From Thermodesulfobacteriota bacterium (GTDB taxonomy: Bacteria > Desulfobacterota_D > UBA1144 > Nemesobacterales > Mycalebacteriaceae), in NCBI GenBank assembly GCA_965226585.1, contig OZ245366.1:1152001-1216000 (forward strand): a DNA stretch of 64,000 nucleotides, in the 5' to 3' direction. This document shows positions 16,646 to 61,400 of this stretch, one piece after another. Numbering within the stretch: position 1 is the stretch's first letter; every line of letters begins with the position of its first letter. The translations under genes were made by a program, and so were the position numbers. The notes beneath the pieces are model-generated. The model searched no databases. It was not told the origin of the DNA and saw nothing but the letters and a program-made list of their open reading frames with translations.

Positions 16646-16730
16646 TGCGGGAGGAGGGACTTGAACCCCCAAGGGATATAATCCCACCGGATCCTAAATC
16701 CGGCGCGTCTGCCAATTCCGCCACTCCCGC
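16646..16730 (-). tRNA. tRNA-Leu(TAG)
   Basis: GCGGGAG acceptor stem, anticodon arm CCGGA-TTTAGGA-TCCGG, long variable arm, GGTTCAAGTCC T-arm. CCA not encoded. Confidence 0.93.
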
Positions 16731-16784
16731 GTGGAAAGTCTCAGATAATAACAGGTTTCCTACTGCCGAAAGTCCACTCTTTAC

Positions 16785-16920
16785 GTCATTCCGTGCCTGA
16801 CACGGAATCCAGTATTTGTTGGCTGTGTAATACTGGATTCCTGCTTTCGCAGGAATGACGGAAGGGGGCAGGAATGACGGAAGGGGGCAGGAATGACGGA
16901 GAGGGGCAACGGAATGACGG
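16785..16920. repeat. Composite palindromic element (75 bp, B-to-A orientation) plus ~19-bp partial tandem copies
   Basis: GTCATTCCGTGCCTGACACGGAATCCAGTATT-N12-AATACTGGATTCCTGCTTTCGCAGGAATGAC (16785-16859), then repeated GGAAGGGGGCAGGAATGAC. Confidence 0.9.
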
Positions 16921-16973
16921 GAGGGAAGAATGGGAACAGCGGGTCTATGGCTTTTGCGGAAGTAAAGGGAAAA

Positions 16974-17046
16974 TGGGCCGCGAGGGATTCGAACCCCCGA
17001 CCATTTGATTAAGAGTCAACTGCTCTACCAACTGAGCTAGCGGCCC
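16974..17046 (-). tRNA. tRNA-Lys(CTT)
   Basis: GGGCCGC acceptor stem, anticodon loop CTCTTAA, GGTTCGAATCC T-arm. CCA not encoded. Confidence 0.93.
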
Positions 17047-37280: not shown

Positions 37281-37476
37281 GTCATTCCGTTGCCCCTTTT
37301 CCCGTCATTCCTCTTTCCCCGTCCATTCCTCTTTCCCCGTCATTCCTGCGAAAGCAGGAATCCAGTATTAATTAACCAGTTGAATACTGGATTCCGTGTC
37401 AAGCACGGAATGACGGAATAGAGAAGTGTCATTCCTGCCCCTTCCGTCATTCCTGCGAAAGCAGGAATCCAGTATT
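37281..37476. repeat. Palindromic element cluster: partial units, one complete 76-bp element (37339-37414) and a lone A half (37446-37476)
   Basis: A = GTCATTCCTGCGAAAGCAGGAATCCAGTATT, spacer AATTAACCAGTTG, B = AATACTGGATTCCGTGTCAAGCACGGAATGAC. The lone A half overlaps the AT1 stop codon. Confidence 0.95.
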
Positions 37477-40400
37477 AAAACCTGTAATTAACTCCGCCTC
37501 TGAACTGTTGCACAAAAGTATCAACCGAAGAACTCACTCCGCCGCCATATTCAAAACTCACATTAAACTTCTCATAAGGGCTGTATTCAAAACCCGCGCC
37601 GTAGGTGAACATCACCCTGTCCATTGTGCCGTCAACGGGAACATTATCCCTCTCAAGCCTTCCTTCAATCTCCGACTCTGGGTTAAGCACCTGTATATCC
37701 GCCCCTGTTCTTATCCACATGTTTATTGTCTCATTGAGAGGACTCCGCGCCTCTATTGACGGACTCACGTACACAAGCAACTCGCTTATCTCATCTACCC
37801 CAAAGGCATCCATCGCCGCGTCTGCCGCACCTGTTCCTGTTGTAAGCGAAGTCTCATTAAACTTATCCGCCGTTATTTGCGATGCGCCAACCGCTACGCG
37901 GGGGAAGAAAGCGAACTCTCCCATTAAGAACGGTCTTGCCGCGCCTATTTCACCGCCAAATACTGTTGCGTCCACATCCGCAGAGTAACTGTTGCCCGCC
38001 GTTCTGGTCGCTTCCCAACTCGTTGACCCATAACGCAGGTTGCCATCAAGAACAAACTCATCAACCAACGCCTCAGCGAATATACCGCCCATGAACCTTG
38101 TTGCGTCTCCGCTTGCTTTGCCCAGTCCTTTTGTGTCCGCCGCAGTCTCTGTTTCTGAACTCGCGTCTATATCCGATATCTCATATCCGCCCGCGATGGA
38201 AACAAGCACTCCGCTGAATGGCGCGGAAAAACCGCCGGTGAAGGAATAAACATCCTCGTTATATTGTATCGCCGATGTGTGCCTTGTGTATCTCCCGCCG
38301 GATGTTGCCCATACGCATCCAGTCCAGAAATCTCCGCCCACCTCATCACTCGCCGCTCCGCCGGTTCCGCATCCTCTTGCCAACTTGTCCGCAAAGTTTC
38401 TGTCTGAACGATAGGCGGACTGTATCAGCGCGTCATATACATCCAAACTTGTGTCTTTGTGCGATGTCGCTATTAAAAACAAATTGCCGTTTTCGTCTGT
38501 CTCAACACTTACCCTTTCGCCTGTCTCCGCATTCAGGCGGTCTACAAATTCCTGCCTTTCTTCGCCTTCGGGCAGGTCATCCGCTTCAAAAATTGTGTAT
38601 TCGTTTATGTGCGTTCCGGGGATATCAACCCTGACATTAAAGCCTTCAATATCTTCCGCGCTTATCGTACCTTCAAGGTTTATCAGCGGGTCGCCCGTCA
38701 TGCTTTCAGGGTCTGCCGTGATAACAAGGGTTGAATTTTCCCCAAAGGTTATTTTCTCCAGTCCCGCAAATCCGCCTGTGTCTTGAATTACGATTGTGCC
38801 ATTGTTTATGAAACGGTCATCGCCATCGCCGAAGTTTATGGTTGCGGTTGTGTCCTCAGGGGCAGGGTCTGCAGAAGAAAGGCGGAAACGGCTGTCGCCG
38901 CTTGCTGCCCCCTCCGTCACTCCTGCCACCTCCGTCATTCCCGCCCCTTCCGTCATTCCCGCCCCCTCCGTCATTCCTGCGGAAGCAGGAATCCAGTATT
39001 GATTAGCCAGTTGAATACTGGATTCCGTGTCAGGCACGGAATGACGGGAAGGCGAAGATTGCGCTCCCGATGAGAGAGGGAAACTCCCGGTTCCGCCTGA
39101 AGACGGCTCGTTTTCCGCATTCTCAAGCATGAAAGCGCCAACAAGGAATGTTCCCGTGCCTTCGGTCGCAACGGTGTCATCGCCTGCGCCCATATCAAGG
39201 TCGCCCGTAAGCGTGAATGTCCCGCCGTCTTTAACGGTAATTGAGTCATTACCGGCTCCGGTTGTTCCCCAGCCCGTGAAAGTTCCCTCGTTTATAAAAG
39301 TGTCGGCGTTGTCGGAAAGTTGTATTCTGCCCGTTATGCTGCCGGTAGGGTCGGTTGTTATCCTTGAGCCATGGGTCGGGGAATCAACACTCACGGCATA
39401 GCCAACCTCCGTGCAGACAGAACCCGAAAGTTCACCGCCGCACACAACCGCGCCTCCTCCTACCGTCAATTCCATTAATGCCGTTCCGTTTCTGAGAGAT
39501 ACCGCCGAACTTGTGCCGCCGTTAGCCCACACTTTTGCGCCGTGAATGTTTGCCGCTGTTGTCGCCTTCACTGTTGAACTTCCCGAAGCGTTAGACCAGA
39601 CCTGCCCCGTTCCGTCTCCTGATATGACCGTAATCCCTCCGCCGGCTTTCGCTGAAATTGCCGAACTTCCAGAAGCGTTAGACCAGACTTTTCCGTCATT
39701 TGAAACATTGACCGTTTCCGCCACTATCGTGTTGCTTGTCTTGCCTTCCCCAATTGTGTTGGCTGATGTTTCGCCTACCCACACTTTTGCACCGTCAATT
39801 TCAACCGTGCCGTTTGAGATAATCGCGGAGTCTGAGTTGAACGCCGACACATTTACGCCGCCCGATACGGTTATTGTTCGCCCGTTGATTGCCGCGAACC
39901 CGTTTTCCGTCTTGACACTTAACCCGTTGTCTTCTCCCGTGCCTCCGGTTACTGACAAGGCTCCACCCGCGCTTGACGCTTCAATGGCGACTGCGCCTCT
40001 TCCCGCCACCTTGATTGTTGAGTTGGCATCTCCGGTAACGATTACATCTCCGCTTATTGATGTTGCCAAAATGCCGATTCCGCCGTCACTGTCGGTTCCC
40101 CTTCCAATAATTACCCCTCTTGACATGGTGAGGGTAATGTCTCCTCTAACCGTGTTGGCTATAACTCCGGTTTTGCCGATTATGCAGGAAAGTCTGTTCG
40201 CAATTATTACATCTACCGTTCCGTCCTCTCCGGTTACCGCCGCCAGACCGTAGGAATCTCCCATGGATGAGGAGAAGATTACCGCCCCGTTTATCAGCGA
40301 GGTCGTCAGGTCGCCGCTTGAACTCGTGAGAGTGGCGGATTTAGAGTCCGAGGTTGAACTCCACCTGACATCTCCGGGAATGCTTCTGTAACTGACAATT

Positions 40401-41001
40401 CCCGCCTCAGAACTGGTAAAAGTTAAATCAATGTTTCCGGCGTCCGTTTCCGCCACAAGACTGTTCACACCGCCCGTCTGCCGCGAATCCATTTTGCTGT
40501 ACCCGCTGAAATTTATGGCTATGCTTCCGCCCGTGCTTTTCGCTACAATTCCGTTGCCTCCGCCGGTTCCGTTAAGCCTGATACGCGAACTGCCCGTAAT
40601 CTCCATGACCAAATCGCCGCCGCCCGACACATCAATAATATTCCCGCCGGACCCTTTGGTAACGGCGTCCACATCGCCCATAAAAAAGGAAACATTGCGC
40701 GCCGCGCCAACTGTTATGGCGGGGTCTCCGTCTCCCGTTGTTGTTATATTCACTCCCATCGCGTTAAAAGCGGCATCCGTTCCGACCGCCTGAGCGTTGA
40801 CTGTAATTCCGGCTCCTGATGAAGTTTCTATGTCTCCGCCGCCCGTAAGAGCTAATGTTGCGTCTCCGGTTGCCGGAGAGCAGTTAAGAGCGGCTGTGGC
40901 TGAAGTTGTTAAGTTGCCGCAATCTGTTTGTGCATAAGCGGGCGGCGCGGCAAGCGTGAGTAAGAGAGAAAGCAGAATAAGGGGGGGGTGGCTTTAGACA
41001 T
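37475..41001 (-). CDS. Autotransporter-like adhesin AT1, frameshifted at a C8 tract near the start
   Basis: Gly/Ser/Thr-rich passenger and C-terminal beta-barrel-like region ending GGVNYRF. The main frame extends upstream of 40759 through a signal peptide (LILLSLLLTLAAPPAYA-Q). The RBS-preceded ATG at 41001 is one base out of frame. Confidence 0.85.
38907..39045. repeat. Complete 76-bp element (38970-39045) plus 18-bp tandem units, in frame inside AT1
   Basis: Translates on the minus strand as RHSVPDTESSIQLANQYWIPASAGMTEGAGMTEGAGMTEVAGVTEGA with no stop. Confidence 0.95.
40981..40988 (-). other. C8 homopolymer (G8 on +) in codons 5-7 of AT1; candidate slipped-strand switch
   Basis: ATG TCT AAA GCC A-CCCCCCCC-TT ATT CTG. 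C9 (or C6) restores the frame. Confidence 0.6.
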
Positions 41002-41065
41002 TTTAGGTGCTCCAAACTTTATTAAAGTGTAGTCTATGGACAAAAATGGGGTTAGGTCAAGTTCC

Positions 41066-41141
41066 GTCATTCCGTGCCTGACACGGAATCCAGTATTCAA
41101 CTGGTTAACTAATACTGGATTCCCGCTTCCGCAGGAATGAC
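41066..41141. repeat. Complete 76-bp element in reverse (B-to-A) orientation between the divergent AT1 and AT2 starts
   Basis: GTCATTCCGTGCCTGACACGGAATCCAGTATT-CAACTGGTTAACT-AATACTGGATTCCCGCTTCCGCAGGAATGAC. Confidence 0.95.
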
Positions 41142-49704: not shown

Positions 49705-50136
49705 TTGCGCCTTCCGTTTTAGTTGCGTCTTTTCCGTTATTCCCGCCCTCTCTGTTATTCCCGCCCTCTCCGTCATTCCCGCCCTCTCCGTCATTCCGTT
49801 GCCTTCTCCGTCATTCCTGCGAAAGCAGGAATCCAGTATTGGTTAGCCAGTTGAATACTGGATTCCGTGTCAAGCACGGAATGACGGAAAGGAAAAAAAG
49901 CACGGAATGACACTCTTCCCCGTCATTCCTGCGGAAGCAGGAATCCAGTATTAATTAACCAGTTGAATACTGGATTCCGTGTCAGGCACGGAATGACGGG
50001 AAGGGGAAAAAGCACGGAATGACACACTCCTCCGTCATTCCTGCGGAAGCAGGAATCCAGTATTACCCAACCAGTTGAATACTGGATTCCGTGTCAAGCA
50101 CGGAATGACGGAAAAGGGAAAAAGGCACGGAATGAC
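49697..50136. repeat. Palindromic element array between the convergent AT2 and AT3 genes
   Basis: 18-20-bp tandem partial units (49697-49809), then three complete 76-bp elements starting at 49810, 49922 and 50034 (period 112). Confidence 0.95.
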
Positions 50137-50141
50137 GGGTC

Positions 50142-53100
50142 TTAAAACCTGTAATTAACCCCGCCCCTGAACTGTTGCACAAAGGTATCTACCGAAGAAC
50201 TCACTCCGCCGCCATATTCAAAACTCACATTAAACTTCTCATAAGGGCTGTATTCAAAACCCGCTCCGTAGGTGAACATCACCCTGTCCATTGTGCCGTC
50301 AACGGGAACATTATCCCTCGCAAGCCTTCCTTCAATCTCCGACTCTGGGTTAAGCACCTGTATATCCGCCCCGGTTCTTATCCACATGTTTATCGTCTCA
50401 TTGAGAGGACTCCGTGCCTCTATTGACGGACTCACGTACACAAGCAACTCGCTTATCTCATCTACCCCAAAGGCATCCATCGCCGCCGCCGCCGCATCTG
50501 TTCCTGTTGTAAGCGAAGTCTCAACAAACTTGTCCGCCGTTATTTGCGATGCTCCAACCGCTACACGGGGGAAGAAAGCAAACTCTCCCATTAAGAACGG
50601 TCTTGCCGCGCCTATCTCGCCGCCGAATACCGTTGCGTCCACATCCGCAGAGTAACTGTTGCCCGCCGTTCTGGTCGCTTCCCAACTTGTTGACCCGTAA
50701 CGCAGGTTGCCGTCAATAACAAACTCATCAACCAACGCCTCGGCAAATATGCCGCCCATAAACCTTGTTGCGTCTCCGCTTGCTTTGCCCAGTCCTTTTG
50801 TGTCCGCCGCAGTCTCTGTTTCTGAACTCGCGTCTATATCCGATATCTCATATCCGCCCGCGATGGAAACAAGCACTCCGCTGAATGGCGCGGAAAAACC
50901 GCCGGTGAAGGAATAAACATCCTCGTCATATTGTATCGCCGATGTGTGCCTTGTGTATCTTCCGCCCGATGTTGCCCATACACATCCGCCAGTCCAAAAC
51001 TCCCCTTCTATCTCATCACTCGCCGCTCCGCTGATTCCGCATCCTCTTGCCAACTTATCGGCAAAGTTTCTGTCTGAACGATAGGCGGACTGTATCAGCG
51101 CGTCATATACATCCAAACTTGTGTCTTTGTGCGATGTCGCTCTCAAAAACAGGTTGCCGTTTTCGTCTGTCTCAACACTTATCCTTTCGCCTATCTCCGC
51201 GCTCAGGCGGTCTGCAACTTCCTGCCTTTCTTCGCCGTCCGGCAGAGCTTCCGCTTCAAAAATTGTGTATTCCGTTACATGCGCGCCGGGAACTTCAACT
51301 TCAACATTGAAACCCTCAACATCTTCGGCGGTTATCGTCCCCTCAAGGTCTATCAGCGGGTTGCCCGCAACGCTTTCAGGGTCTGCCATAATAACAAGGG
51401 TTGAGTTTGCACCGAAAGATATTTTCTCAAGCCCGTTAATCGTTTCCCCGCTCCTTATTACCAAAGTTCCGTTGACTGTCAGAGTGTCTCCATCGCTATC
51501 TCCAAAGTTCAGAGAACCGCCGCCCGATTTCTCCGGCTCCGTTTCCACAAACTCAGCGGTTCCCGCAGAACCGAGACGGGAACGCCCGTCTCCGCCGGAT
51601 GACACAGAACGCCTGCCGCTACTACTGCTGGTGGTAGTAATATTCGTGCCGTCATACACCGCGCCTGCGGCTATGGTAACACTTGCGCCGCCCACAACAG
51701 CCGATGTGTCTATATCGCCATACACCTTGCCGGTGCCGCCAACCGTAACTTCTCTCTTGTCGTAGCCAAGGGTTCCTGTTCCCACCTTCGCGCCCGCAGA
51801 CATTTTTATCGCCACGCCGCCCGTTACGTTCACGCTTCCGTTCACCCAAACAAAAGCCCCGCCGTTTGCCGTGTTCGCGGAAATCCCGGTTCCCGAAATA
51901 ACCGCCCCGCCGTTTGCGTACACCGCCGAACCTTCTTCAATAATTACATTTGCATATCCGGTATCAGCCCGCGCTATTATCGCCTTCGCGCCGTTTCCAC
52001 TCGCGTTCACAACTGCCTGTCCTGAAACGGTAATGGCAACATTCCCGCTTCCGCTTGACGCGCCCCGGAACGCGCTTGACCTGTCAGGGATGACTGACAG
52101 CCGCGAGTCTTCGCTCATTGAAAAAGAGATGTCTCCGTTTTCCGTCTCCGCGACAATCGCGTCTGAAGCGGAATGCCCGCGCATAATCACCTGAGAGGTG
52201 TTGGCAAGCGCAATGTTTATGTTTCCGTCCGCGCTGTTCGCGTAGATGGCTCCGGCGGTGGTTCCGTGATCCGGCAATCCGGCTATGACCTGCGCGCCGC
52301 CTTTCAAACTGACGGTTGTAACCCCGTTAATCATTTCCGACACGATGCCGCTTGACAGGTCTCCTGCCGCCTCTATCCGGGAGTTGTCTGATGCGTTAAG
52401 GAAAAAGTTCACATCATCGCCGCCCGCGACTGCGCGAATGGCTGTGCTGTTCCCCGCGCTTGTCCGAATACGCGCGTTTGCGGACATATTGAAGATTATA
52501 GACCCTCTGTTCTGGCTTGCATCCACGCCGCCGGAGTCAGCCGCGTTTGTGAAGACCGCCGCATTGCCTCTTATGTTGAGGCGGAACAAGTCTCCGTCAT
52601 TTATTTCCGCCAGCAGAGCCGTGCCGGAGACCCCTTCCGTGTAAATTTCCGTGCCGCCTTCCAAAACCGCAACGGCGGCTACATAGCCGTATCCCCCGCC
52701 CGGCCGGTGTGTCTTTATGCTGAGGGCTGAACTGTTTTCCCCTTCGCTGAATATTTTCGCAGAGTTTCCGCTTGATCTGAAAAATACGTCAAATGATTCC
52801 TGGGAAGCGGTTGTTATCTCAACTGCGGAGGCATTCGCCCCGTTTGACCACACTCTCAAGGGTCCTCCCATAAGTCTCACCTCAATATCTCCGAAGGGCT
52901 GAGAGGCGTTCACCTCCATAGTGTTCACATTATTGCCGGTTGTCCATACATCGGTGTCTCCCCGAACGTTAAGCCGGACTGTACTCGTTTCTTCAGTTGC
53001 AATCGCGCTTGCGCCGCCGGTTGCCCAAATTGTGGAATCCTCAACCGTCATGGATACGCTTCTCGCTATGACGATATCACCCGGCACGGTGCGGTTTGCC

Positions 53101-56100
53101 GAGTGCGCGGCAACGGCTCTTACACCCTCCGCCACCCGCGCCGAGGCGTTCACGTTGTTCATATAGACATCAGTGGAGGAAATAGCCTTGCCGTCTCTTC
53201 CGTTTGCCCACGCTGTTACTCTATAGACACTAACGCGGCGGGGCAGAAAAAAGCCGGGGGAACTGCTGGTGTAATGGCTGATGGCGACAGAGTTCACCCC
53301 CTCCGCCCAAACTTCTGACGATAGGTCACGGGAGTGGATGCTGTTCCCCGTAATCGTTACGGAGTTCGCCCCGTTTGACCACATTTTTGAACCCTCGCTC
53401 ATGTCGAACCTGCCGGATATGCTTGCCGTTACGGATGAATTGCCTTCAGTCCACAATTCCGCCGACTTCGTAATCTCAAATCTTTCCGCTAAAATCGCCG
53501 CGCTTCCCTCGCCGTTTGCCCACACTTTCGTGTCCGCCCCGCGCACGGTGGCTTCGGAACTTACAACAGTAACGCTGGTGTTTCCCTCAGACCACACTTT
53601 TGAGCCGCCTCTGATTCTCACATTCCGCGCGATGGCGGTGGTGCTGAAATCGCCGTTTGACCAGACACGGGGATCTGAGGCGGCGACAAAGGTTACGGCG
53701 GAAATGGTGTTGCTGTTATCCCCCTCCGTCCACACACTCGCTTGCCCTCTTGTTACACTAATCTCACTCGCCAAAGCCGCCCCGCTTCCGTATCCGTTAG
53801 CCCACACCTTTCCTCTGGAAAGTTTCACGTTAATACCGGGCGCCGCCGCAACGGTTGTGCTGTTCGCCCCTTCAGACCAAATCCTCTGCCTCACACCCGA
53901 GGTTTGATCGTCCACAGTAAAACTTCCGTTCTCGCCAACCGCGCCCGCCCTGTCTATGCGGAGGGTTACGCTTTCACTGCCTTTTGACCACACTTTTATT
54001 CGAGACGGCGCTCTGAGCCGGAGGGCGGTATTGCTGTAAATGGTGATTGTCGCGCTGCCCGCCCCCGTGCTTCCCAACTCTTTTGCGGGCAGATACCCCG
54101 CCATTTGTCCAACTGGAAGCCAGGCGTAGTTGAACGCGAGGGCGGAGCTGTTTTCGCCTGTTGTCCATACGGCGTTTGTCTTTTCAAAGGTGATAACTGA
54201 TGAATCTCCCAGCGGGATGAACCCGTCAAAGACAGTTATCTCCTCCGGGTTTGGTCCGGGGAAACTTTCGTCTTCCTGAACCGTTGTTGAGAATAATGTC
54301 CAGTCAGATCTTCCCGTCCAGAACGAAGAGTTGTAGGAGGCAACGGTAACTGTTCCTCCTTCTATGTTGGCGGCATGAAAAAACGCTCCCAGTTGGTGTT
54401 CAAATCCGATGGTTGAGTTGTGAAGGTTGAGGGTAACGTCCTTTGCCGCCGCCTTAATTTCAAAAGGCGTGGAGAAATCCCCCTTAGCCCACACTTCCGA
54501 GTTGTTCACGGTTATATTTTCGTCAACCGAAACGGCGTTGCTTGGCGACGACCCGTTTGCCCATATTTTCACGCCGTCAATTACTGAGGGTCCGCCCCTT
54601 ATGATAACGGTTGTGCTGTTTGCCCCTTCCGTCCAGAACTCCGCCCTGTCTCCTTCGGTGGAGGAGATAAAAACAGCTCCGCCGCCGCTTGAGACATTCA
54701 CCGCCGAACTTTCCTCTCCCTCAGCCCACACCTTGCCCGCAGTGGTGTACGCAACAGGTCCGCTTCCCGTTTCCAGACGGACTGTCGCGCTTCTGTATCC
54801 TTCCGTCCATGCCTTTCTCACGTTGAAGTGGCCGCCCAAGTCCGCCGGGCTTGCTCCCTGATTTTCAAATACGATGGCTGAACTGCGGAAGCCGTTTGCC
54901 CAAACCGAGTCTATGTTCTCAAAACTCATGCGGCTTGTGATTACCGTGTTGTCAATCCTTGCCGTTGCCGTTCCGCTTCCCGCGACTACCGCCGAGAATA
55001 CTCTGGCTATATCTTTTCCCATCCAGAAAGAGGAGTTTTCCGAAGCAACCGATACTGTTCCGCCGAGTCCTTCCGTGATTCCAAAAAACGCGCCTTGAGC
55101 CGTATCAGAGCCGACAACCGAGTTGTAAAGTTTGAAGTCAACCTCTCCGCTCCGCAGTCCGGACAGTCTGAAAATTGTTCCCTGCCCCACAGCGGAAAGG
55201 TTTGACGAGTTCACGATTACGGTTGCCTTTTTTCCGCTTCCCGACACAGTTGCGTCAACCGCGACCGTCCTGAGTCCCTCAGTCCACAAGGTTGAGTTTT
55301 CTATGGTAACGGATGTTTGCGCGGAAATGGCGTTGCTGTCTGCCCCGTTTGCCCACACTTTCAAGCCGGTAACCGTTGCGATGTTTGCTTTTACGGCTGA
55401 AGAGCGGGCTCCCTCCGCCCAAACTTCTCCCGTTCCGTCTGTTGAACTGATGGCAACCGTTCCCGAACTGTTTCCCGTAACCGCCACATCTCCCGCCCCG
55501 TTTGCCCAGACCCTTGATCCGCCGAGCAAGTCCGCCGTTCCCGCCGCCATCGCGTTTGCCATTTTACCCGCGCCGGTTGCCGCCCATATATCCGAGCCCT
55601 TTATTGTCGCGCTTTCTTCCGATGAAACTGCGTTGCCGCCTGACCCCCCTTTTACCCACACTTTCAAGCCGGTAACCGTTGCGGTGTCTGCTTTTATGGC
55701 TGAAGCCCGGAAGCCCTGCGCCCAAATTCCTCCCGTTCCGTCTGCTGAACTAACGGCAACCGTTCCCGAACCGTTTCCCGTAACCGCCACATCTCCCGCC
55801 CCTTTTGCCCAGACCCTTGCTCCGCCGAGTAATTCCACCACTCCCGCCGCTACCGCTTTTGCCGTTTTACCGTTGCCGGTTTGCGCCCATAAAGTCGCGC
55901 CGTTTATTGTTACGCTTTCTTCCGATGAAACTGCGCTGCCGCCTTCTCCTCTCGTCCAAATCTCTCCCGTTCCGTCAGATGATGTGATGGTTACCGCGCC
56001 CGAATCTTCCGCCCTAACCGCAGACGCGCCCACGCCTCTAGCCCAAACTTTTCCCATGGTTGAGATGTTGACCGTCTCAGCGATTACAGTCGTGCTGTTA

Positions 56101-57005
56101 TCGCCTTGCGTCCAAACGGATGCGGCGGCAACCTTTGCCGTATCCGCAACCACCGCCGCTGAGTTGGTTCCGGTTGCCCAAACTTGTGTGTTGTTGTGGA
56201 TGACTGCCAGTCCTTCAACAACAACCGCGCTGGTGTCTGTGCCGTTAGACCGGATTTCTGACTGTGAAATTGTTACGCCGTCTGATGCTTTGACTGCCGT
56301 GCTGTTTGCGCCTTCCGTCCACACATCAAGCGATGTAATGGACGCGCTTCCGCCTCCGCCCGTAATGTTGACGGCGTAACTGTCATCGCTGAGTGAGTAG
56401 ATTTCGCCCGCTGAGGTGTTGCCTGAGATAGAGATAAGTTCTTCGGATTCAACCGCCAGAGCCGCGCCGCCTGCGGAGCCTGCTTCCAGCGCGAGTTTTG
56501 AATTGTTGCCCACCCAAAAGGTGATGGATGTGTTCACGCCTTTGAATTCAGCGGTGTTCACGCTACCGCCGCCTGAGGTAACAAGCATATTGTCTGTTAT
56601 TCTTGCGGCTATATTTCCCTGTCTGATATTTACGCTAATCGCCGCGCTTCCGCCTGAGTTTATAACGTCTGTTTTTCCGTCTCTTGAGCGGACATCCAGA
56701 TCAAGGTTTGTAATGATACTGGTGTTTGTGTTTGGGTCTCTTGCGTAGGTAATTGTGGAACTAATTCCGTCTCCTCCGATTAGCGGAACGGGGTTTGCGG
56801 CTTCAATGATGAAGGGGGTAGTGGTTATGTTGTATGTAATAACCCCGCGTGTGTGTTTTTCATCAAGAATTTCGAATTGTTCAGAGGGAGACTCCGGAAA
56901 CGGGAGGATTGTCACGGGAGAATTTGTCTGGGAATAAGATACGCCCGGCACGATGAGGGTGAATAAAAGAGCAATCAGGGAGAGGGCGAATGAGCGTTTA
57001 AGCAT
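50142..57005 (-). CDS. Giant autotransporter-like adhesin AT3 (2287 aa)
   Basis: Signal peptide MLKRSFALSLIALLFTLIVPGVSYS-Q, many VWxxGxxSxAV repeats, C-terminal domain nearly identical to AT1, ending GGVNYRF. Confidence 0.88.
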   Translation of the reverse strand: MLKRSFALSLIALLFTLIVPGVSYSQTNSPVTILPFPESPSEQFEILDEKHTRGVITYNITTTPFIIEAANPVPLIGGDGISSTITYARDPNTNTSIITNLDLDVRSRDGKTDVINSGGSAAISVNIRQGNIAARITDNMLVTSGGGSVNTAEFKGVNTSITFWVGNNSKLALEAGSAGGAALAVESEELISISGNTSAGEIYSLSDDSYAVNITGGGGSASITSLDVWTEGANSTAVKASDGVTISQSEIRSNGTDTSAVVVEGLAVIHNNTQVWATGTNSAAVVADTAKVAAASVWTQGDNSTTVIAETVNISTMGKVWARGVGASAVRAEDSGAVTITSSDGTGEIWTRGEGGSAVSSEESVTINGATLWAQTGNGKTAKAVAAGVVELLGGARVWAKGAGDVAVTGNGSGTVAVSSADGTGGIWAQGFRASAIKADTATVTGLKVWVKGGSGGNAVSSEESATIKGSDIWAATGAGKMANAMAAGTADLLGGSRVWANGAGDVAVTGNSSGTVAISSTDGTGEVWAEGARSSAVKANIATVTGLKVWANGADSNAISAQTSVTIENSTLWTEGLRTVAVDATVSGSGKKATVIVNSSNLSAVGQGTIFRLSGLRSGEVDFKLYNSVVGSDTAQGAFFGITEGLGGTVSVASENSSFWMGKDIARVFSAVVAGSGTATARIDNTVITSRMSFENIDSVWANGFRSSAIVFENQGASPADLGGHFNVRKAWTEGYRSATVRLETGSGPVAYTTAGKVWAEGEESSAVNVSSGGGAVFISSTEGDRAEFWTEGANSTTVIIRGGPSVIDGVKIWANGSSPSNAVSVDENITVNNSEVWAKGDFSTPFEIKAAAKDVTLNLHNSTIGFEHQLGAFFHAANIEGGTVTVASYNSSFWTGRSDWTLFSTTVQEDESFPGPNPEEITVFDGFIPLGDSSVITFEKTNAVWTTGENSSALAFNYAWLPVGQMAGYLPAKELGSTGAGSATITIYSNTALRLRAPSRIKVWSKGSESVTLRIDRAGAVGENGSFTVDDQTSGVRQRIWSEGANSTTVAAAPGINVKLSRGKVWANGYGSGAALASEISVTRGQASVWTEGDNSNTISAVTFVAASDPRVWSNGDFSTTAIARNVRIRGGSKVWSEGNTSVTVVSSEATVRGADTKVWANGEGSAAILAERFEITKSAELWTEGNSSVTASISGRFDMSEGSKMWSNGANSVTITGNSIHSRDLSSEVWAEGVNSVAISHYTSSSPGFFLPRRVSVYRVTAWANGRDGKAISSTDVYMNNVNASARVAEGVRAVAAHSANRTVPGDIVIARSVSMTVEDSTIWATGGASAIATEETSTVRLNVRGDTDVWTTGNNVNTMEVNASQPFGDIEVRLMGGPLRVWSNGANASAVEITTASQESFDVFFRSSGNSAKIFSEGENSSALSIKTHRPGGGYGYVAAVAVLEGGTEIYTEGVSGTALLAEINDGDLFRLNIRGNAAVFTNAADSGGVDASQNRGSIIFNMSANARIRTSAGNSTAIRAVAGGDDVNFFLNASDNSRIEAAGDLSSGIVSEMINGVTTVSLKGGAQVIAGLPDHGTTAGAIYANSADGNINIALANTSQVIMRGHSASDAIVAETENGDISFSMSEDSRLSVIPDRSSAFRGASSGSGNVAITVSGQAVVNASGNGAKAIIARADTGYANVIIEEGSAVYANGGAVISGTGISANTANGGAFVWVNGSVNVTGGVAIKMSAGAKVGTGTLGYDKREVTVGGTGKVYGDIDTSAVVGGASVTIAAGAVYDGTNITTTSSSSGRRSVSSGGDGRSRLGSAGTAEFVETEPEKSGGGSLNFGDSDGDTLTVNGTLVIRSGETINGLEKISFGANSTLVIMADPESVAGNPLIDLEGTITAEDVEGFNVEVEVPGAHVTEYTIFEAEALPDGEERQEVADRLSAEIGERISVETDENGNLFLRATSHKDTSLDVYDALIQSAYRSDRNFADKLARGCGISGAASDEIEGEFWTGGCVWATSGGRYTRHTSAIQYDEDVYSFTGGFSAPFSGVLVSIAGGYEISDIDASSETETAADTKGLGKASGDATRFMGGIFAEALVDEFVIDGNLRYGSTSWEATRTAGNSYSADVDATVFGGEIGAARPFLMGEFAFFPRVAVGASQITADKFVETSLTTGTDAAAAAMDAFGVDEISELLVYVSPSIEARSPLNETINMWIRTGADIQVLNPESEIEGRLARDNVPVDGTMDRVMFTYGAGFEYSPYEKFNVSFEYGGGVSSSVDTFVQQFRGGVNYRF

Positions 57006-57038
57006 TAATTTATTACGGGTAAGGGCTGATTTGTAGAA

Positions 57039-57066
57039 ATTGTATTGCGTAGGTGTTTTTTGTCAA
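57039..57066 (-). promoter_or_regulatory. Sigma70-type promoter for AT3
   Basis: Minus strand TTGACA (57066-57061), N16, TACAAT (57044-57039), about 33 nt upstream of the ATG. Confidence 0.65.
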
Positions 57067-57332
57067 ACGGGCGGGGGTAAAAGGGGGTTTTTGAAGCAGG
57101 AATCCAGTATTGGTTAACCAGTTGAATACTGGATTCCGTGTCAAGCACGGAATGACGGGAAGGGGAAAAGGCACGGAATGACGGGAAGGGGAAAAGGCAC
57201 GGAATGACGGGAGTGGAGAAGCGTCATTCCGTTGCCTCCTCTGTCATTCCTGCGAAAGCAGGAATCCAGTATTGGTTAGCCAGTTGAATACTGGATTCCG
57301 TGTCAAGCACGGAATGACGGAAGTGGAGAAAC

Positions 57333-57715
57333 GTCATTCCTGCGAAAGCAGGAATCCAGTATTATTTAACCCGATGGACAAAAATCCCGCAGTCTACATA
57401 ATGGCGAGCAAGCGAAACGGAACACTTTACACAGGTGTAACCAGCAACCTGCCCGCCCGCGCTTGGGAGCATAAGAACAGCGCGACAGAAGGTTTTACAG
57501 ACAAATACAGTGTCCACCTGCTTGTGTACTTTGAAGTGCACGAGGATATGAATTCAGCAATTGAACGCGAGAAGCAGATAAAGCAATGGAAACGCCAGTG
57601 GAAATTGGAACTTATAGAGAAAGACAACCCTGAATGGAAAGATTTGTATGAGGATATTGTTTGAGTAGGGGTTTCGCCAGTTGAATACTGGATTCCGTGT
57701 CAAGCACGGAATGAC
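57333..57715 (+). mobile_element. Candidate autonomous element: hairpin A - GIY-YIG gene - hairpin B (383 bp)
   Basis: A half 57333-57363, then ATTTAACC (spacer-like), ORF 57374-57664, then GCCAGTTG (spacer end) and B half 57684-57715. Mobility is inferred from structure only. Confidence 0.6.
57374..57664 (+). CDS. Stand-alone GIY-YIG nuclease-family protein (96 aa)
   Basis: AVYIMASKRNGTLYTGVTSNLPARAWEHK...GFTDKY...LVYFE...AIEREKQIKQWKRQWKLELIE..NPEWKDL. The two Tyr, the Arg and the Glu expected for catalysis are present. Confidence 0.92.
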   Translation: MDKNPAVYIMASKRNGTLYTGVTSNLPARAWEHKNSATEGFTDKYSVHLLVYFEVHEDMNSAIEREKQIKQWKRQWKLELIEKDNPEWKDLYEDIV

Positions 57716-58496
57716 GGGAAGGAGAAAAGGCACGGAATGACGGGAGTGGAGAAACGTCATTCCGTTGCCTCCTCCGTCATTCCTGCGAAAGCAGGAATCC
57801 AGTATTAATTAGCCAGTTGAATACTGGATTCCGTGTCAGGCACGGAATGACGGGAAGGGGAAAAGGCACGGAATGACGGGAGTGGAGAAGCGTCATTCCG
57901 TTGCCTCCTCTGTCATTCCTGCGAAAGCAGGAATCCAGTATTAGTTAGCCAGTTGAATACTGGATTCCGTGTCAAGCACGGAATGACGGAAAGGGGAAAA
58001 GGCACGGAATGACGGGAGTGGAGAAACGTCATTCCGTTGCCTCCTCTGTCATTCCTGCGAAAGCAGGAATCCAGTATTAGTTAACCAGTTGAATACTGGA
58101 TTCCGTGTCAAGCACGGAATGACGGGATGGGGAAAAAGGCACGGAATGACGGGAGTGGAGAAACGTCATTCCGTTGCCTCCCCCCGTCATTCCTGCGAAA
58201 GCAGGAATCCAGTATTAGTTAGCCAGTTGAATACTGGATTCCGTGTCAAGCACGGAATGACGGAAAGGGGAAAAGGCACGGAATGACGGGAAGGGGAAAA
58301 GGCACGGAATGACGGGAGTGGAGAAACGTCATTCCGTTGCCTCCCCCCGTCATTCCTGCGAAAGCAGGAATCCAGTATTAATTAACCAGTTGAATACTGG
58401 ATTCCGTGTCAGGCACGGAATGACGGAAAAAAAACAATCAACGGAATGACGGAATGGTGGAAAGCACGGAATGACGGAAGCGGCAGGTATCCAGTA

Positions 58497-61400
58497 TTAA
58501 AACCTGTAATTAACCCCGCCTCTGAACTGTTGCACAAATGTATTAAAACTCGCGCTGGTTCCGCCGCCGTATTCTATGCTTATGTTCAAACTGTCGTAGG
58601 GGTTGTATTCCATTCCGGCGGAGTAGGTGAACATCACCCTGTCCATTGTGCCGTCTCTGAGGACATTCTCGGGAACATCAGGGTCGCCGTCATTTGCGCC
58701 GTCTCTTATAAGCCGCCCCTCAATCTCAGATTCAGGGTTTAGCACTTGCACATCCGCTCCGGCTCTCATCCACATGCTTAACATCTCACTCACAGGACTC
58801 CGCGCCTCTATTGACGGATTTACATACACCAACAACTCACTCGTATCTTCTACATAAAACTTGTCCATATCCGCCGCCGTTTCCTCATTCACGCTGTCCG
58901 TATCGGGGTCATCCACCGCAAGCGAATTCTCAACGAACTTGTCCGCCGTTATGTACGATGCTCCCAACTCAAGACGAGGCAGTAAGGCAAACTTGCCGGA
59001 TAAAAACGGCTTGGTAACGGCTATCGCGCCGCCGAATACTGTCGCGTCCACATCAGCCGAATAACTGTCGCCGTCCGCCGTTCTGGTCGCCTCCCAACTT
59101 GTTCCCGCATAACGCAGGTTGCCGTCAACAACAAACTCATCAATAACACCCTCGGCAAATATGCCGCCCATAAATCTTGTTGCGTCTCCACCCGCTTTGG
59201 CAAGCCCCCTTGTGTCTTCATCAAATGCCGTCTCCGCGCTTGCGTCTATTGTGGATATCTCATATCCGCCCGCTACTGAAACAAGCACTCCGCTGAACGG
59301 GGCGGATACTCCGCCGGTGAAGGAATAAACATCCTCGTCATACTGTATCGCCGATGTGTGCCTTGTGTATCTTCCGCCAGATGTTGCCCATACGCATCCA
59401 GTCCAGAAATCTCCGCCCATCTCATCACTTGCCGCGCCGCCGGTTCCGCATCCTCGCGCCAACTTGTCGGCAAAGTTTCTGTCTGAACGATAGGCGGACT
59501 GTATCAGCGCGTCATATACATCCAAACTTGTGTCTTTGTGCGATGTCGCTCTCAAAAACAGATTGCCGTCTCCATCTGTCTCAACGCTTACCATTTCACC
59601 CGCCGCCGCGCTCAGGCGGTCTGCAACCTTTTGCCTTTCTTCGCCGTCCGGCAGGGCTTCCGCTTCAAAAATTGTGTATTCCGTTACGTGCGTTCCGGGA
59701 ACATCAACTTCAACATTGAAACCTTCAATGTCTTCAGCGGTTATCGTTCCCTCAAGGTCTATCAGCGGGTCGCCCGCCACGCTTTCAGGGTCTGCCATGA
59801 TAACAAGGGTCGCGTTTTCACCGAAAGTCATTTTCTCCAAGCCGTTCATAGATGTTCCCCGGTCAACCTCCCAAGTTCCGTCAAACATGAAACTGTCTTC
59901 GCCTTCTCCAAAGTCTAAAAGAATGAACGCAGATTCCGGCTCAGTTTCCACAACCTCAACGGGTTCCGCAGAACCAAGACGGAAACGCCCGTCTCCGCCG
60001 GATGACGCAGACCTTCTTCTGCTGGCGCACAAACTTGACGTATGGCCGCCTAATTCCACACTGCTAAAGCAACCTGTGCCACTGTATGAGGCACCGGAAA
60101 GAGAGAGCGTGTCATCTCCATCTCCCATAGCAAAAGTTCCCGTAAACCTCCAACCGGCGTTTTTTATGGAAACAATGTCAGCGCCCCTGCCCAAATCCCC
60201 GCTTCCCGTGAATGCTATTATTGATGAACCACTTAGTCCGTTCACGTAAATTTGGTCAATGTGTGACGTTCCACTAATATGACCGTGTATCCCGCCCTGA
60301 CCAGTACTTGCCAACTCCATAATAATTTTTCTGCTGACTGCCGGCCGCAGACTTGGCTGCACTCTCGCTTCGGCTACCAGATTTACCGCAGTCGCGCCCG
60401 GCGCGTACACAAACCCTCCCTTTATGTGAACCAGAATGCCCCCGTCACTCGTTTGCGCTTTAATCGCGGTTGAACTGCTTTGCGATACCTTCACAAACGA
60501 CCCCCTCTCCATAATCACGTTCGCGTGTTCTCTGACGCCGCCCGCCACAAATTTGTTGGTCGCGCTTCGCGCCAATATTCCTATCGCGCCCGCGCCGGTT
60601 AAGTTCAAACCCATGGTTGCTCCAATGTTCACAACCGCGTCTCCGACACGCCCCCCATTCGCGGTAATTCCGACCGCCCTGTCGCCATTCAACTGAACTA
60701 TCTGGTTGTTGGCATCCTGATTTTGGGTTCTTCTGTGGTGAAAATCAACTCTCGCCAATGCTCCGGATTCCGTAAGCACTGAAACAAACTTGCTGTCATG
60801 TCCGTGCGCGTGAAATCTGTTGTCGAAGCCCGAAAGCCCTACGCCGCGAGTAGAAACAATATTTCCCCTCACGCTTCCGCCGTCAACTACTTGCGCATGA
60901 AAAGCCGTGCTCCTGTCGCCTGTTACAAACAGGTCTCCCCGCACATCAAACCCTATGTTTCCCTTTCTGGCACTTATAAGCACCCCGTAACTGTCTGCGC
61001 CGGCGGCGGAGACGGTGGTGTTGGAATTCTGGCTATACACAACATCCGACGCTTTGGGGTTTGGACCCAAAGTGCCCAATCTTACCGCAGTACTGCCCGT
61101 CCCGTTTGTCCACACTCGAGCCCGATGCGCGGTGTCTGTGCCGAGGGTGAATGTTAAGGGTGTTCCGGATTGCGCATGCAGTTGAAGGGCAACGGCAGTG
61201 CTGTCTCTCGCCTCCGTCCACACTTGCGCACCCCCGCTAATGGTGGCTGTTACAGTTTCCGACAGACTGTCTGCGCCCAAGGCGGTGCTTGAGTGCCTTG
61301 TCGCCCACACTTTTGCCGACCCTCCAATGTTAATGTTAATTTTTCCGAAGTCCGTAACGGCGCTGAATGCGCTTGACCTGTCAGTCTGGATTGACAGCCG

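Follow-up and report, generated by a model that had tools for sequence, protein, structure and literature searches.

The closest described relatives of the element analysed here are the Ssn nucleases and their hairpin repeats. In Neisseria, the NTS (CGTCATTCCCGCGMAVGCGGGAATCYRG) is an oriented superset of the dRS3 repeat and is bound solely as single-stranded DNA (ssDNA), in one orientation, by SsnA, a 94-aa single-domain GIY-YIG protein (CDD cd10448) (Chenal et al., Nat Commun 2025; PMC11893778). SsnA is a single-strand-specific nuclease whose cut lies a few nucleotides 5' of the NTS and which does not cut double-stranded DNA (dsDNA); the mutants Y6A, Y17A and E64A keep binding and lose cutting. 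In N. meningitidis, SsnA reduces the integration of NTS-bearing transforming DNA. More widely, 71% of ssnA homologue genes lie near a motif and 42% are flanked on both sides, and 81% of genomes with more than 200 motifs possess the ssn gene. Here we analyse a stretch of 64,000 nt (the window; bases 1,152,001–1,216,000) from a Thermodesulfobacteriota bacterium whose genome is one contig (OZ245366.1) of 1,484,247 bp with 51.6% G+C. Near its right end, an open reading frame (ORF) for a 96-aa protein lies between two inverted CGTC-tagged hairpins. We consider it probable, judging from the sequence, that this is an SsnA-type single-domain GIY-YIG protein, predicted to bind the hairpins as ssDNA and to cut a few nucleotides outside the tag.

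The hairpins also resemble the CGTC-tagged repetitive extragenic palindromes (REPs), a group that takes in CGTC-1, CGTC-2, Neisseria dRS3 and Rickettsia RPE-6. As described by Di Nocera et al. (2013; PMC3733652), their stems are 8–9 bp and start with AT, their loops are 4–5 nt and their tail is CCA; they occur mainly as head-to-head dimers with conserved spacers, with additional intragenic copies, and in that account they apparently have no dedicated transposase. The repeats of this genome share the CGTC/TGTC tag, the 8-bp AT-start stem, the 4- or 5-nt loop and the CCA tail, and they too form mainly head-to-head dimers with conserved spacers and occasional in-frame intragenic copies. In contrast to the CGTC-REPs of that account, they come with an Ssn nuclease, as do the repeats of Chenal et al., and the unit is a heterodimer of a 4-nt-loop and a 5-nt-loop CGTC-REP.

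Likeness to SsnA/NTS extends to a single-domain GIY-YIG protein of about 95 aa, a gene between inverted CGTCATTCC...GGAATCCAG hairpins, hundreds of genomic hairpins clustered near surface-protein genes and a patchy spread over many phyla. The present system differs in its stem variants, which fall outside the SRM search string of Chenal et al. (a T-A pair in hairpin A, a GTG/CAC stem in hairpin B), in that the two flanking hairpins differ from each other, and in that the spacer occupied by the gene belongs to a family of tight head-to-head dimers that has expanded to 138 gene-less copies. Its host is a small-genome uncultured bacterium rather than Neisseria, and this member is known from sequence alone.

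Three further systems bear comparison. As in the RAYT (REP-associated tyrosine transposase) families with their REP, REPIN and BIME repeats, a nuclease gene lies among hairpin repeats recognized in ssDNA (a recognition that is predicted here), doublets form larger hairpins and the arrays are clustered mosaics; RAYTs belong to the HUH Y1 enzymes, act through a covalent tyrosine intermediate and have GTAG-tagged REPs, whereas the enzyme here is a hydrolytic GIY-YIG protein. IS200/IS605 elements and their derivatives resembling miniature inverted-repeat transposable elements (MITEs) share subterminal ssDNA-recognized hairpins, a small single-gene element and possibly gene-less derivatives. IS200/IS605 elements lack inverted ends and are cut twice on the same strand, whereas the unit described here has inverted hairpins that place a single site on each strand, and GIY-YIG enzymes are not known to join strands. 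GIY-YIG homing endonucleases of the I-TevI type share the catalytic core and the association with mobile DNA but have a separate DNA-binding domain and dsDNA targets, whereas the protein here is a bare core.

An earlier reading made from the letters of the window only (the sequence-only reading) had proposed a RAYT-analogous system in which a minimal GIY-YIG nuclease nicks these hairpins and so seeds or amplifies them. The proposal is partly supported, in that nuclease gene and repeat do belong together and purified homologues cut ssDNA beside such hairpins; in its main lines it is not new. The Discussion of Chenal et al. likens NTS-ssnA-NTS to an insertion sequence (IS) and compares it with IS200/IS605 and RAYT/REP/BIME, and the words MITE and tandem are absent from the text. 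Other than that paper, we found none in the literature that links GIY-YIG to bacterial REP or MITE mobility. The gene-hairpin association, the enzymology and the IS/RAYT analogy are thus already in Chenal et al. (2025), and the locus is a new example of that system. New here are a 307-bp difference between filled and empty units, a burst of dimers specific to this genome among those searched, the gain of a unit in a tRNA spacer, the transfer of a whole unit across phyla, and hairpins outside the published pattern.

Architecture of the Gene-Bearing Unit

The gene-bearing A-gene-B unit occupies 57332–57716 of the window, with the sequence that the sequence-only reading described. An intact 96-aa GIY-YIG gene does lie between hairpins A and B, flanked, as that reading also held, by the start and the end of the normal spacer. 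The unit consists of the following parts.

57332–57359, plus strand: hairpin A, an NTS-type, CGTC-tagged REP, CGTCATTCCTGCGAAAGCAGGAATCCAG
57360–57373, plus strand: left inner linker, TATT-ATTTAACC-CG, assigned from its sequence and the spacer variants
57374–57664, plus strand: candidate ssn gene, 96-aa single-domain GIY-YIG nuclease plus stop (ATG at 57374, TGA at 57662–57664)
57665–57687, plus strand: right inner linker, GTAGGGGTTTCG-CCAGTTG-AATA, also written GTAGGGGTTTC-GCCAGTTG-AATA
57688–57716, minus strand: hairpin B, minus-strand reading CGTCATTCCGTGCTTGACACGGAATCCAG, inverted relative to A

Hairpin A is built from the tag CGTC, an 8-bp stem (ATTCCTGC/GCAGGAAT), the loop GAAA and the tail CCAG; hairpin B has the same tag and tail, an 8-bp stem and a 5-nt loop. 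Folded as ssDNA, hairpin A forms the 8-bp stem and 4-nt loop at −7.8 kcal/mol (z −6.6), and the minus strand of hairpin B forms the 8-bp stem and 5-nt loop at −7.8 kcal/mol (z −4.7), with 0 of 200 shuffles as stable in either case. The TATT of the left linker is complementary to the AATA of the right linker. Adjoining these, the left linker has TTAACC and the right linker CCAGTTG, which match the left and right parts, respectively, of the 13-nt spacer found in gene-less units.

A second gene-bearing unit, identical in layout and junctions, lies at 1333265–1333647 of the genome (window coordinates are genome coordinates minus 1,152,000). The two units, 383 bp each, differ at 2 of 383 positions, one of which is a synonymous change in the gene. 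On the left, their identity ends at most 1 nt from the CGTC tag; on the right, it continues for about 26 nt past hairpin B, into a common type of linker. Among the contigs of sequencing runs X1–X4, the gene appears as a 368-nt contig (57335–57702) in X1–X3, those of X4 cover the repeats and not the gene interval, and the only joints are repeat-mediated and ambiguous; no RNA run is listed, and the contigs have no bearing on expression or mobility. A promoter and terminator scan upstream of the gene gave nothing specific (2 promoter-like sites against 1.1 expected).

The Encoded Protein

The only Pfam match of the 96-aa protein is GIY-YIG (PF01541; E 7.8e-16, residues 6–78). No NCBIfam model matches it, and a PDB sequence search gave no match at E up to 0.01. 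At 96 aa and with no extra domain, the protein has the single-domain form of Ssn, roughly 94–100 aa. There are at least 8000 homologues, and the 120 best listed are mostly 96–97 aa long and 67–80% identical. An in-frame upstream TTG (57272) would extend the protein to 130 aa; given the length of most of the 120 listed homologues, the ATG start at 57374 stands. Residues Y8, Y19, R29, H33, E66 and N85 are conserved in 34–37 of 37 aligned homologues. The catalytic-type residues among them, Y8, Y19 and E66, are conserved in 34, 36 and 37 of the 37, respectively, and were equated with Neisseria Y6, Y17 and E64 by an inferred 2-residue offset. The protein is 45–73% identical to homologues in many phyla whose flanks bear NTS-like hairpins.

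The Hairpins and the Published Repeat Definitions

Hairpin A departs from the NTS consensus at 2 positions, and these compensate each other as a T-A stem pair; this bears out a likeness to Neisseria dRS3 and CGTC-tagged REPs already suspected from the letters. At up to 3 mismatches, the NTS consensus matches the window at 15 sites and none of 100 shuffles at any, and the 1.48-Mb genome contains 278 sites of the form GTCATTCC-N8-16-GGAATCCA, where the reversed-pattern control gives 0. The repeats likewise agree with the CGTC-REP definition, having the CGTC tag, an 8-bp stem starting AT, a 4- or 5-nt loop, a CCA-type tail and head-to-head dimers with a conserved spacer. The 76-bp unit is accordingly a head-to-head heterodimer of a CGTC-1-like and a CGTC-2-like REP. 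Both genomic gene copies have the NTS-ssnA-NTS layout, with inverted hairpins on both sides.

Association of Gene and Hairpins in Relatives and across Phyla

We compared 41 genomes of the same order, this one included, counting as strong homologues those with E at most 1e-20. Such a homologue is present in 17 of the 41, and all 17 carry the GTCATTCC-N8-16-GGAATCCA hairpin at 1 to 278 sites. The 24 genomes without the gene comprise 17 without a hairpin site and 7 with some, and the reversed-pattern control is 0 in every genome. Gene presence therefore goes with hairpin presence (17 of 17 against 7 of 24), as the sequence-only reading would predict. Because the 41 genomes are kin and several are fragmented, this co-occurrence is an association rather than a statistical test. 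The gene of the congener G001 is 68% identical and has on either side a perfect 28-nt copy of CGTCATTCCCGCGCAGGCGGGAATCCAG, the two copies being inverted relative to each other.

The association also holds at greater distance. We examined 48 loci from named public records, with Cyanobacteria, Rickettsiales, Dehalococcoidia, Patescibacteria and Cloacimonadota among them, a sample biased to close relatives by a peptide pre-filter. Flanks of 150 nt on both sides were available at 45 of these; L032, L050 and L054 were left out for short flanks. An inverted repeat scoring at least 14 flanks 18 of the 45 homologue loci, compared with 1 of 273 control ORFs of at least 70 aa from the same loci, so inverted GTCATTCC-type hairpins are indeed far commoner beside homologues than at other genes. 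The CGTC/TGTC tag faces outward in at least 14 of the 18. These counts bear on an explanation of the repeats as ordinary REP-like structures of RNA or DNA, such as terminators or mRNA stabilizers, with a nuclease gene among them by chance. REPs are frequently 3' of genes and transcribed (PMC3733652), and the arrays of this genome do stand at gene boundaries. Against such a coincidence are the cross-phylum association relative to controls, the identical junctions of both copies in the genome, and the absence of any Rfam match (in 57000–58600, at E up to 0.1), and we regard it as extremely unlikely.

Several observations weigh against assigning the locus to the Ssn/NTS system. The degenerate SRM search string of Chenal et al. 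gives 7 matches in the genome compared with 6–10 in five Markov-1 simulated genomes, and neither hairpin of the gene-bearing unit matches it. The mismatch stems from variant stem bases and not from the architecture. For Neisseria SsnA, altering the stem sequence with the structure kept abolishes activity (PMC11893778), so recognition of the variant stem, and of the two stems A and B by one enzyme, is an assumption here; the 96-aa protein would need a specificity of its own that accepts two different inner stems. Hairpins also occur where the gene was not detected, with 24 sites in G002, 30 in G004, 12 in G005, 15 in G006, 11 in G035, 3 in G028 and 2 in G008, and G006 is a single contig.

The variant stems have a practical consequence: a survey by the SRM string would rate this genome motif-poor despite its 278 hairpins. 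The locus extends the Ssn/NTS system of 2025 to a small-genome uncultured bacterium, with variants that the published motif search would miss.

Two side observations concern the homologue loci. In G001 (L002:2280–2790), four to five tandem copies of a piece of about 113 bp lie between two full ssn copies; each consists of the upstream hairpin and the first ~73 nt of ssn, and all end at the same coding point. Such copies may have been left by repeated rounds of breakage and repair close to the hairpin. At L003, L006 and L009 (from G025, G011 and G029, respectively), an ORF about 100–150 nt 3' of ssn starts with MEKVLVFDIWGDYGHF or similar. We take this start to be like a Cas5 N terminus, in which case ssn may border a CRISPR-Cas locus in the family of these relatives.

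Gene-Less Dimers and the 307-bp Difference

A genome-wide scan with both halves, allowing at most 5 substitutions per half and no indels, yields 148 A halves and 148 B halves. These form 138 A-B pairs with spacers of 11–25 nt, 120 of them exactly 13 nt, and exactly 2 pairs with a 320-nt spacer, which is the ssn gene. The commonest spacer forms fit RRTTARCCAGTTG, and the commonest 13-nt spacers are GGTTAACCAGTTG, AATTAACCAGTTG and GGTTAGCCAGTTG. The 140 units form 58 clusters, of which 33 are singletons, and units within an array all have the same orientation. The fold of a complete 78-nt gene-less unit is a three-way nested palindrome of −21.5 kcal/mol (z −7.6). All 13 of the 75–76-bp A-spacer-B units enumerated in the sequence-only reading were recovered by the scan; in the window they are distributed as follows.

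57243–57318, plus strand: gene-less A-spacer-B head-to-head dimer directly upstream of the gene-bearing unit
57776–58424, plus strand: tandem array of five gene-less units (starts 57776, 57912, 58048, 58186, 58349)
49810–50109, plus strand: array of three gene-less units (starts 49810, 49922, 50034)
37339–41141: three single gene-less units, at 37339–37414 (plus), 38970–39045 (plus) and 41066–41141 (minus)
16785–16859, minus strand: single gene-less unit with half-site copies in a tRNA-Leu/tRNA-Lys spacer

The linkers between the five units of the 57776–58424 array are 61–88 nt long and contain half-hairpin fragments. The 49810–50109 array is just 3' of the stop codon of a 2287-aa autotransporter-like ORF (50142–57005, minus strand).

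Filled and gene-less forms differ by a single 307-bp indel: TTAACC and CCAGTTG, overlapping by CC, make up the 13-nt spacer, so that a CC microhomology bounds the indel. This clean difference fits the earlier proposal that the gene-less units are internal-deletion derivatives, and the widespread gene-between-hairpins layout would favour deletion as the direction of change. The proposal fares less well at L003, L006 and L009, where the head-to-head dimers, with spacers of 14–15 nt, are neighbours of the ssn gene and do not enclose it; a dimer is thus not necessarily the product of a deletion.

The same junctions might be read the other way, as a homing-type insertion in which a free-standing GIY-YIG gene entered the centre of a pre-existing dimer that was its target and not its product. 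GIY-YIG homing endonucleases are a well-known class, the spacer halves flank the gene exactly and the 2-bp CC could be a duplication. Only 2 of 140 dimers are filled, however, and the protein is a 96-aa nuclease core with no additional DNA-binding domain. The layout recurs with unrelated linkers in many phyla, so that the same precise insertion would be needed many times. Characterized homologues cut upstream of the hairpin in ssDNA and not in the spacer, and they do not cut dsDNA (PMC11893778). We judge homing very unlikely.

Evidence for Dispersal of the Units

Filled and empty sites could be compared in relatives, as the sequence-only reading had suggested, at one site. The spacer (16731–16973; 243 nt) between tRNA-Leu (16646–16730) and tRNA-Lys (16974–17046) contains one unit and three tandem half-site copies of about 19 nt, each a half hairpin plus a G-rich linker, GCAGGAATGACGGAAGGGG-like. 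The orthologous spacers of the congeners G001, G003 and G004 are about 8, 70 and 90 nt long and have no unit. A unit has thus been gained at the orthologous position. Half-site copies similar to those of the tRNA spacer also flank many units elsewhere in the genome.

Tight dimers (GGAATCCA-N0-30-TGGATTCC) number 0 in G001–G006, G017 and G034, five in G011 and one in G037. Among the six genomes of the genus that were searched, plus G006, this genome alone has them, and the dimer burst is therefore specific to it among those searched.

Units have also moved over longer distances. Over its full length, with both hairpins and the linkers, the G001 unit is closely matched by a frameshifted ssn copy at L047:2950–3330 from Candidatus Poriferihabitaceae (Gammaproteobacteria), at about 85% identity as read off the alignment. 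By comparison, the proteins of the congeners G000 and G001 are identical at 65 of 97 aligned positions only. The L047 hairpins are identical to hairpin A of the window, and the L047 coding sequence closely resembles that of G001, not that of this genome. The alignment points to transfer of a whole hairpin-gene-hairpin unit across phyla.

These features raise the question of whether NTS-ssn-NTS is a true autonomous IS, with the GIY-YIG nuclease as its transposase and the 76-bp dimers as MITE-like internal-deletion derivatives moved in trans. The unit has terminal inverted hairpins around a single gene, and these terminal inverted repeats are common to gene-bearing and gene-less copies. Two near-identical gene-bearing units accompany 138 gene-less ones with the same ends and spacer ends, and the tight-dimer burst, the gain at the tRNA spacer, the transfer between phyla and the want of classical transposase families in the genome all speak for mobility. 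The same idea was raised by the authors of the Ssn paper (PMC11893778).

The evidence on the other side is chemical and genomic. GIY-YIG enzymes are hydrolytic nucleases, and no covalent cut-and-rejoin chemistry, whether covalent intermediates or strand joining, is known for them. The inverted hairpins offer one cleavable site per strand, unlike IS200/IS605. The flanks of the 140 units show no evident target-site duplication, the intergenic alignment is too diverged for exact junctions, no circle was seen, and no excision joint appears among the contigs of runs X1–X4. The AT-TTAACC spacer variant of the gene-bearing units occurs in none of the gene-less units. Most units lie in same-orientation tandem arrays, which slippage or unequal exchange could make with no nuclease. 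The dimers at L003, L006 and L009 lie beside ssn, and dimers are the usual CGTC-REP form (PMC3733652). On balance, we think an autonomous IS in this strict sense unlikely.

Proposed Mechanism and Genomic Context

In the mechanism that we propose, drawn from the characterized homologues, an extruded ssDNA hairpin would be bound by Ssn and cut just 5' of the CGTC tag. As the hairpins are inverted, the cleavable site falls only at A on the plus strand and only at B on the minus strand, and both predicted cuts would lie immediately outside the unit. With a hydrolytic enzyme that is not known to rejoin ends, copying of a unit, whether into tandem arrays or to new sites, would depend on the host, through recombination or fold-back repair of the breaks, and literal RAYT-like transposition by the GIY-YIG protein alone is unlikely. 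Arrays by giant autotransporter genes would also make incoming or exposed ssDNA there a substrate and so modulate recombination, as in Neisseria.

A broader formulation sees in NTS-ssn-NTS a new class of living mobile element, one that combines a hydrolytic GIY-YIG ssDNA nuclease with host repair, and in the CGTC-REP head-to-head dimers its gene-less derivatives. We put this forward tentatively and think it rather unlikely to be right. Were it true, the genome would hold a natural filled/empty pair with exact junctions and a recent lineage-specific burst. If the nuclease drives copying, this would explain how CGTC-tagged REPs (dRS3, RPE-6 and relatives) multiply; otherwise, the locus is one more Ssn locus. 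Either way, with almost no other mobile-element enzymes, two intact gene-bearing units, 138 dimers with matching junctions and at least one datable tRNA-spacer gain, the genome is a clean test bed for whether the nuclease spreads its own hairpins, a question left by the Ssn authors.

The position of the arrays relates to a different possibility, that of a host system domesticated as in Neisseria, where arrays mark surface-protein genes, the nuclease trims ssDNA that enters there by transformation or is exposed in recombination, and repeats spread only by slippage, unequal exchange and duplication with paralogous genes. Frames of at least 900 aa contain, or have within 500 nt, 29 of the 58 clusters, compared with a random mean of 12.9 and a maximum of 23 in 1000 draws, and the genome has 16 autotransporter-domain matches. 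The arrays are tandem and in a single orientation. Moreover, 14 of the 140 units lie inside long paralogous frames (at least 400 aa), always antisense to the A-to-B orientation and several with identical flanks. In the window, the complete 76-bp unit 38970–39045 lies inside the open frame 37475–40993 (minus strand), which it leaves unbroken. Homologues of ComEC and DprA are present, but they also match in 10–11 of 14 control genomes and thus say little about competence. A transformation phenotype has been shown for N. meningitidis (PMC11893778).

This account sits uneasily with the unit gained in the tRNA-Leu/tRNA-Lys spacer, a place remote from every autotransporter, and with the 33 singleton sites. 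The patchy cross-phylum distribution of the gene, with hairpins travelling along, looks selfish rather than vertical. A system that is solely domesticated strikes us as doubtful, while Neisseria-like trimming of ssDNA around surface-protein genes is possible in its own right.

Other Candidate Enzymes

IS110-type enzymes target dRS3 in Neisseria phages. The IS110, rve and DDE_Tnp_1 families have no match in the genome, and an IS110-type enzyme was accordingly rejected as a driver. There is one Y1_Tnp-like gene, outside the window at 1393314–1394138 (L061:615–1439), encoding 274 aa with a C-terminal helix-turn-helix. Its flanks contain no hairpin repeats. Most relatives have a single copy, among them all eight genomes of the genus g8; the gene occurs in 14 of 17 hairpin-free relatives and, with this query, in none of the three hairpin-rich g20 genomes. 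With repeat-free flanks and a presence that does not track the hairpins, it is not a RAYT for these repeats and was rejected as their transposase; it looks like a domesticated HUH protein rather than an active IS. The sequence-only reading would have been undermined by a RAYT- or IS200-type enzyme tied to the repeat; there is none, the sole Y1_Tnp-like gene being unlinked.

Additional Features Upstream of the Unit

Two further features concern the 2287-aa autotransporter-like gene. At 57085–57158, a unit without the left arm of hairpin A, starting within GCAGGAATCCAG, abuts the promoter region of this gene. At 57039–57066 on the minus strand, the interval that separates the start of the 2287-aa ORF from the repeat array contains a near-consensus promoter-like sequence (TTGACA-16-TACAAT, 11 of 12 positions).

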